From assembly GCF_011045215.1 (NCBI RefSeq), contig NZ_CP049201.1: a DNA stretch of 64,000 bases; one strand, given 5' to 3'. Each line of letters opens with the position of its first letter. Within the stretch, counting starts at the first letter, position 1. This document shows positions 43,269 to 43,907 of this stretch, in pieces. Position numbers and translations under genes: made by a program. Under the pieces are notes generated by a model. The model ran no database searches. It saw nothing but the letters and a program-made list of their open reading frames with translations, and was not told the DNA's origin. This DNA is from Escherichia coli (GTDB taxonomy: Bacteria > Pseudomonadota > Gammaproteobacteria > Enterobacterales > Enterobacteriaceae).

Positions 43269-43706
43269 TTAAACCATCACCAGCGATAACTCTTTGCCAA
43301 GCGCCTTTGCCGCGAGCTGGACGGCGTCGATTTTTGTCGCATGATGCAAGTTAAATAGGCGAGTAATCTCCTGTTTAGGTTTGCCAATTCGCCTGGCTAA
43401 CTCTTGCTGAGTGATTTCTGACTGTAAAAAAGCATTTAACAGCAATACCTTAGAGGCGACGCTCAAAGGTACTTCAATAAAGTGATCATGACTATTTAAT
43501 GGCGAAGGTAAAGGGATAAGCTCGTTATCTTCAAAATAAAAATCAAATGCGGTCAGTAAAGCATCTTTTGCCGCTTCCATCGCTTCAGCGACAGTTTCGC
43601 CCTGGGTCAACGCTTCAGGGATATCCACAAAAGAAACCATATAACCGCCTTCCGGCGCGGGTGTAAGAGTGACGGGATAACGCATAATTTCGACTGTCTC
43701 TCGCAT
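43269..43706 (-). CDS. hicB: Antitoxin HicB (start may be the internal Met at 43685)
   Basis: MRYPVTLTPAPEGGYMVSFVDIPEALTQGETVAEAMEAAKDAL; C-terminal HTH; immediately downstream of hicA. Confidence 0.85.
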   Translation of the reverse strand: MRETVEIMRYPVTLTPAPEGGYMVSFVDIPEALTQGETVAEAMEAAKDALLTAFDFYFEDNELIPLPSPLNSHDHFIEVPLSVASKVLLLNAFLQSEITQQELARRIGKPKQEITRLFNLHHATKIDAVQLAAKALGKELSLVMV

Positions 43707-43730
43707 GTCATTAACCTTTTTAATTGGCGA

Positions 43731-43907
43731 TTAACTCAAACCGAGTTGTTTCAGGATTGCTTTACGCAATGGTTCTTTAATCTCATCGCAGGGGTGACGC
43801 GGCATGACACTGCGCCTCCCATGAAACCTGAGTTTCAAATGGTTGCTGCCATTCGCTACATCGACGCCCTGAGATTCGAGCCAACGTCTGAACTCGCTTT
43901 GTTTCAC
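43731..43907 (-). CDS. hicA: mRNA interferase toxin HicA (58 aa, GTG start)
   Basis: Hand translation of the minus strand gives (V/M)KQSEFRRWLESQGVDVANGSNHLKLRFHGRRSVMPRHPCDEIKEPLRKAILKQLGLS. Below the 60-aa cutoff of the ORF track. Confidence 0.8.
   Translation of the reverse strand: MKQSEFRRWLESQGVDVANGSNHLKLRFHGRRSVMPRHPCDEIKEPLRKAILKQLGLS

Follow-up and report, generated by a model that had tools for sequence, protein, structure and literature searches.

The window analysed here, a 64-kb stretch of Escherichia coli DNA (64,000 nt), contains at positions 43269-43907 two genes on the minus strand, hicA and hicB, with hicA directly 5′ of hicB, a 45-nt gap between them and no gene in the gap. 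The features of the locus and of its surroundings are as follows:

41784-43190, minus strand: ydcR, flanking gene
43269-43685, minus strand: hicB, 138 aa (RefSeq CDS WP_001270286.1, Pfam, PDB 6HPB chain B)
43686-43706, minus strand: possible alternative hicB start, an MRETVEI extension of 7 in-frame codons (from the ORF list: 43269-43706, 145 aa, ATG)
43731-43907, minus strand: hicA, 58 codons, with GTG at 43907-43905 and TAA at 43733-43731 (ORF list, Pfam, PDB, RefSeq)
43912-43917, minus strand: Shine-Dalgarno (SD) sequence of hicA, GGGAGG, 4 nt before the GTG (read from the sequence)
43926-43934, minus strand: extended -10-like element TGaTATACT, probable P2 promoter, with no recognisable -35 (read from the sequence)
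43940-43957, no strand: perfect palindrome GTAAACA-N4-TGTTTAC, probable hicO (inverted-repeat scan)
43958-44128, minus strand: remainder of the hicA-yncJ intergenic region, expected to hold P1 and the CRP-S site (literature)
44129-44359, plus strand: yncJ, flanking gene
44451-46454, minus strand: rlhA/ydcP, flanking gene

Comparison of the locus with sequenced E. coli strains shows that it is almost certainly the canonical chromosomal hicAB type II toxin-antitoxin operon of the species, intact, and encoding proteins identical to those of K-12. A 1,051-bp region was 99.8-99.9 % identical at the DNA level to E. coli chromosomes (99.8 % for MG1655), and the hicAB segment was 100 % identical to that of strain TUM9757. 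RefSeq places hicA (WP_000813794.1) and hicB (WP_001270286.1) at precisely matching positions in K-12 and TUM9757. The gene, proteins, structures and regulation of hicAB are thus known already, and routine annotation exists. An earlier note on this DNA had described a toxin gene directly upstream of HicB on the same strand, and this arrangement was borne out, the strand, which the note left unstated, being the minus strand. The range that it gave, 43269-43907, is bounded exactly by the hicB stop codon and the initial G of the hicA start codon. It was also right that a 60-aa ORF cutoff hides hicA, whose ORF is 58 aa long, but its suggestion that automated callers can miss the gene does not hold for PGAP, since hicA is annotated, with identical coordinates and the GTG start, in K-12, in TUM9757 and in all sampled genomes with an intact locus. 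HicA is among the most commonly annotated small-protein families (PMC11796252).

The 58-aa translation of hicA (MKQSEFRRWLESQGVDVANGSNHLKLRFHGRRSVMPRHPCDEIKEPLRKAILKQLGLS) matched the HicA_toxin profile PF07927 at 30.9 bits, above the gathering score of 27 bits, with residues 5-57 aligned to profile positions 3-58 of 58; the hand translation on which the earlier note relied therefore has its HicA profile match. Along all 58 residues, HicA showed 100 % identity to chain A of PDB 6HPB, recorded there as "mRNA interferase toxin HicA". The catalytic residue named for HicA, His23 (PMC8138530), is present, and was invariant in two homolog alignments. For HicB, numbered in the 145-aa form, HicB_lk_antitox (PF15919) matched residues 10-74 at 32.8 bits (cut-off 27) and HTH_3 (PF01381) matched residues 95-141 at 31.4 bits (cut-off 23). 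HicB was identical to chain B of 6HPB and 6HPC (138 aa), and to 6U0I (the 145-aa form plus a tag). Neither protein matched an NCBIfam family at E<=0.01, so RefSeq must name HicA and HicB by some other route, and this result is nothing against their identity. Among the PADLOC protein models, HicA had no match and HicB had marginal matches in the HTH region alone (E 0.002-0.008). Elsewhere in the window, Rfam gathering-level matches were found for the sok antitoxin RNA of the hokB/sokB type I toxin-antitoxin locus (59219-59370, plus strand, 109.7 bits) and for the RydC sRNA (59930-59993, plus strand, 92.5 bits). The window yielded no tRNA genes.

The GTG start of hicA is forced by the sequence. 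Reading upstream in frame, the codons 5′ of the GTG are TGA (43934-43932), TAT, ACT, CAG, CGG, CAG, GGA, GGC and GAT, and no ATG, GTG or TTG occurs between this TGA, 9 codons 5′, and the GTG. The later in-frame starts, a TTG at codon 24 and an ATG at codon 35, both lie past His23. Because of the upstream TGA and the position of His23, GTG 43907 is the sole usable start, in agreement with the GTG start proposed in the earlier note for the 58-aa HicA, and the same GTG is used in RefSeq MG1655. The SD sequence was invariant in four E. coli alleles, and homologs carry GGAGG or GGGGG at the equivalent place. Entries for hicA and hicB were absent from the supplement of one sORF paper, which reports ribosome-profiling start-site data. 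Several non-synonymous differences separate the E. coli hicA alleles, with the upstream control region and the hicA-hicB junction invariant. Codon 40 (43788-43790) encodes Cys in K-12-type alleles, and Ser in other E. coli alleles and in the Arsenophonus and Aeromonas homologs.

The start codons of hicA were compared across the HicA clade. At 13 loci sampled by tblastn, which imposes no selection on the start codon, hicA began with GTG in 6, TTG in 1 and ATG in 6. The GTG loci were those of E. coli, both Arsenophonus plasmids, Aeromonas, and Klebsiella and E. coli plasmids. A start-neutral scan with DNA 14-mers gave GTG for all three true HicA genes among the 120 matches listed. A peptide scan of IMG/VR returned 80 loci, all with ATG (28 distinct proteins, up to 82 % identical), but its pattern began with M, so that it is biased to ATG and useless for start-codon frequencies. 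Non-ATG hicA starts recur in the clade and are not universal. Among E. coli genes in general, ~17 % start with a codon other than ATG. The proposal that weak hicA initiation, with GTG or TTG and a tightly spaced SD near the P2 start, has been selected and is recurrent in the clade, throttling the toxin relative to the antitoxin, can be put forward only tentatively: many close relatives on viral contigs start with ATG, and the loci are not phylogenetically independent. A toxin-throttling role of the non-ATG starts is plausible and unproven.

For hicB, comparison of homologs favours the start at 43685, which gives a protein of 138 aa, and the 7-codon extension is probably not a conserved start. 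The alternative is that hicB starts at ATG 43706, only 24 nt from hicA, and encodes 145 aa. This ATG has the better SD (AAGG, 8 nt before it), compared with a poor GAGAGA 11 nt from ATG 43685, and PDB 6U0I was built on the 145-aa form. Arsenophonus paIh2, the closest plasmid homolog, likewise has an in-frame ATG 6 codons upstream, again with a better SD. Against the longer form, RefSeq and PDB 6HPB adopt the 138-aa HicB, and the Pfam HicB profile match begins only at residue 10 of the 145-aa form. All 12 annotated plasmid homologs begin with M-x(1-2)-YP or similar, the equivalent of E. coli Met8, and at 10 of 10 homolog loci analysed by ORF the start lies 2-4 codons before the conserved YP. 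Eight of these 10 have no upstream alternative, including two viral-contig relatives whose HicA is 81-82 % identical, and the extension sequences themselves are not conserved (MRETVEI versus MFTDTT). Segment 43686-43730 was invariant in all four E. coli alleles compared, which makes within-species variation uninformative on this point. We consider the 145-aa form unlikely, and retain it because E. coli and Arsenophonus paIh2 both keep an upstream in-frame ATG with the better SD. In E. coli, as in several relatives, the SD of the conserved hicB start is weak or missing.

In the 221-bp spacer between hicA and yncJ, the inverted-repeat scan found a sole strong inverted repeat, the palindrome at 43940-43957, and GTAAACA-N4-TGTTTAC has no other exact match in the 64-kb window. 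The operator hicO has been described as an inverted repeat at P2, near the hicA start (PMC10865869; PMC6957337). The palindrome is probably hicO, the predicted operator bound by HicB dimers, and TGaTATACT is probably the -10 of P2. These assignments, made by sequence comparison, are supported by the invariance of the palindrome, -10, SD and GTG in four E. coli alleles whose hicA interiors vary at many positions, and by a palindrome in the same register in Aeromonas salmonicida pO23AP4 (GTAATCA-N4-TGATTAC, 33 nt before its own GTG versus 32 nt in E. coli). If P2 transcription begins ~7 nt past the -10, the SD falls at the very start of the transcript, which would account for the lack of hicA translation from P2 mRNA. 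When the hicA leader (43975-43860) was folded as RNA, the result was no better than that of shuffled sequences (z = -0.47), and the palindrome was the only stable element. A generic sigma-70 -35/-10 scan left P2 unreported, because its -10 has no -35; the scan returned ydcR-side hexamers and one pair at 43711-43684, in the hicA-hicB gap and hicB start.

The promoter P1, upstream of P2, has a CRP-S site and is turned on by Sxy/CRP; its transcript provides both HicA and HicB (PMC11594946; PMC11951105; PMC8138530). A search for the CRP-S consensus TGCGA-N6-TCGCA with <=2 mismatches gave no site in 43908-44128; in the whole window the same search gave 31 matches, against a chance expectation of 37.5. 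A weighted 22-mer CRP-S score returned weak asymmetric candidates alone upstream of hicA, for example 43999-43978 and 44066-44045. CRP-S sites are known to be asymmetric, with one half-site poorly conserved (PMC6728893). The promoter/terminator scan of the locus found no terminator-like site. No terminator-like hairpin was seen 3′ of hicB (43191-43268), and the 78-bp hicB-ydcR gap has promoter-like hexamers for ydcR (43251-43214, minus strand), so that read-through from hicAB into ydcR is conceivable.

The toxicity of cloned hicA and its rescue by hicB have been published for the identical K-12 proteins. The mechanism outlined here is drawn from reviews and citing papers, and applies to those same proteins. 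The fold of HicA, a small RNase, is that of a dsRBD (PMC10865869), and the RNase activity of HicA is translation-independent and causes growth arrest, according to Jorgensen 2009 as cited in PMC11951105 and PMC6957337. At this locus, HicA would be expected to cleave mRNAs and tmRNA without need of translation, leading to growth arrest. HicB binds HicA through its N-terminal partial RNase-H-like domain, which covers His23, and it dimerises and contacts DNA through its C-terminal HTH. Together the two proteins form a HicA2B2 complex, and HicB is degraded by Lon (PMC10865869; PMC8138530). HicB acts at hicO to repress P2, which adjoins the hicA start, and an excess of HicA lifts this repression; the short-leader P2 transcript yields HicB and not HicA (PMC11594946; PMC6957337), so that the antitoxin is selectively replenished. 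Transcription of hicAB rises on amino-acid starvation (PMC11951105). The GTG start and the short SD spacing may help to hold toxin translation low.

Among 5,426 complete E. coli genomes examined for the pair, 4,253 (~78 %) kept 80 % or more of the hicAB segment, about a fifth (1,096) had a partial match, and 77 had none. The sampled partial loci have a deletion of 445 bp (window 43507-43951) that takes out hicA together with the 5′ half of hicB and one half of the palindrome, and what is left of hicB is annotated as a pseudogene; EPEC E2348/69 has lost a further 144 bp (43306-43449). Other strains carry a 22-bp deletion within hicA (43765-43786) between CGCA direct repeats, with hicB intact, and the product is annotated as "mRNA interferase, frameshifted". 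This erosion is as expected of a dispensable chromosomal toxin-antitoxin module, with hicA disappearing either before hicB or along with it.

What chromosomal hicAB does for the cell is debated in the literature. Two other readings of the locus were weighed. The same mechanism could serve another purpose, anti-phage abortive infection or selfish addiction, in place of growth regulation linked to starvation or competence. A defence role of HicA domains has been argued from genetic contexts (Gerdes 2024, PMC10865869), relatives are frequent on plasmids and in viral contigs, and the presence/absence pattern of hicAB in E. coli is like that of accessory genes. However, hicAB lies between the core genes ydcR, yncJ and rlhA with no mobile element or defence island adjoining, the locus is without a PADLOC match, the published regulation ties it to Sxy/CRP and amino-acid starvation, and no phage phenotype of hicAB was found in the sources consulted; we regard a defence or addiction role as doubtful. 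Dispensability within the species, seen in the partial loci of 1,096 of the 5,349 matching genomes and in the 445-bp deletion and 22-bp frameshift of the sampled ones, could also suggest that the pair is a decaying, functionless remnant in the source strain. This is highly improbable, given that the window carries both ORFs undamaged, along with an intact SD, -10 and palindrome, that HicA and HicB have the same sequences as the proteins whose activity and crystal structures have been reported, and that 4,253 of 5,426 genomes retain at least 80 % of the pair.

The locus is thus best read as an intact hicAB operon, a textbook type II module whose structures are solved and for which a model of regulation has been published, and the present analysis leaves that picture unchanged. 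The minor gains, of use to curators, are the support for the 138-aa HicB start, the probable location of hicO and P2, and the erosion of the locus within E. coli.

Comparison with known systems places the pair closest to that of E. coli K-12 (b4532/b1438; PDB 6HPB, 6HPC, 6U0I), which has identical proteins, the same flanks (ydcR, yncJ, rlhA), and the GTG start, SD and upstream palindrome in common. The two loci differ at only a few DNA positions, silent or intergenic, and represent one system in two strains. Next are relatives on plasmids and phages, namely Arsenophonus nasoniae paIh2, Aeromonas salmonicida pO23AP4 and the IMG/VR contigs L022-L024, in which HicA has 58 aa and is 72-82 % identical. 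These are also toxin-first, with a gap of ~50 nt and a HicB that begins MRYPV or MHYPV, but they reside on mobile elements, unlike the chromosomal hicAB of E. coli. The Arsenophonus and Aeromonas plasmid hicA genes start with GTG, whereas the viral-contig copies start with ATG. The HicA of Aeromonas pO23AP4 is 72 % identical, and its palindrome has the same 7-N4-7 geometry as in E. coli, whereas the upstream repeats of Arsenophonus paIh2 differ from the E. coli palindrome. In the Aeromonas locus (L010), the palindrome at 650-667 is accompanied further upstream by a second, related TGTAATC-N6-GATTACA (615-634), and the two suggest a conserved operator architecture with an extra site. A GC-rich hairpin directly follows hicA in Arsenophonus and Aeromonas (L009, 878-926; L010, 878-927), for example CCGCCCC-AACA-GGGGCGG, and is lacking in E. 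coli. A noncanonical intrinsic terminator within a plasmid hicAB operon was described in a 2025 paper (PMC11878559).

More distant systems share either the protein fold or the regulatory scheme. HicA3B3 of Yersinia pestis, HicAB of Burkholderia pseudomallei and HicBA of Streptococcus pneumoniae are alike in having a HicA RNase of dsRBD fold with a catalytic His, and a HicB with an N-terminal toxin-binding domain that acts as an autorepressor and is relieved by excess toxin (PMC11594946). Their HicB proteins are of the ribbon-helix-helix type and form tetramers, whereas in E. coli the HTH of HicB is of Xre type (PF01381) and the complex is A2B2 (PMC10865869). Detailed evidence for the two-promoter scheme exists only for E. 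coli hicAB (PMC11594946). Haemophilus influenzae toxTA and E. coli mqsRA and higBA are toxin-first type II systems, as is hicAB, and like it have an upstream CRP-S/Sxy promoter and a downstream promoter that is repressed by the antitoxin and expresses the antitoxin only (PMC8138530; PMC6957337). Their proteins are unrelated to HicA and HicB, the toxins being of RelE/ParE type, and the likeness is one of regulation, not of ancestry (PMC6957337).
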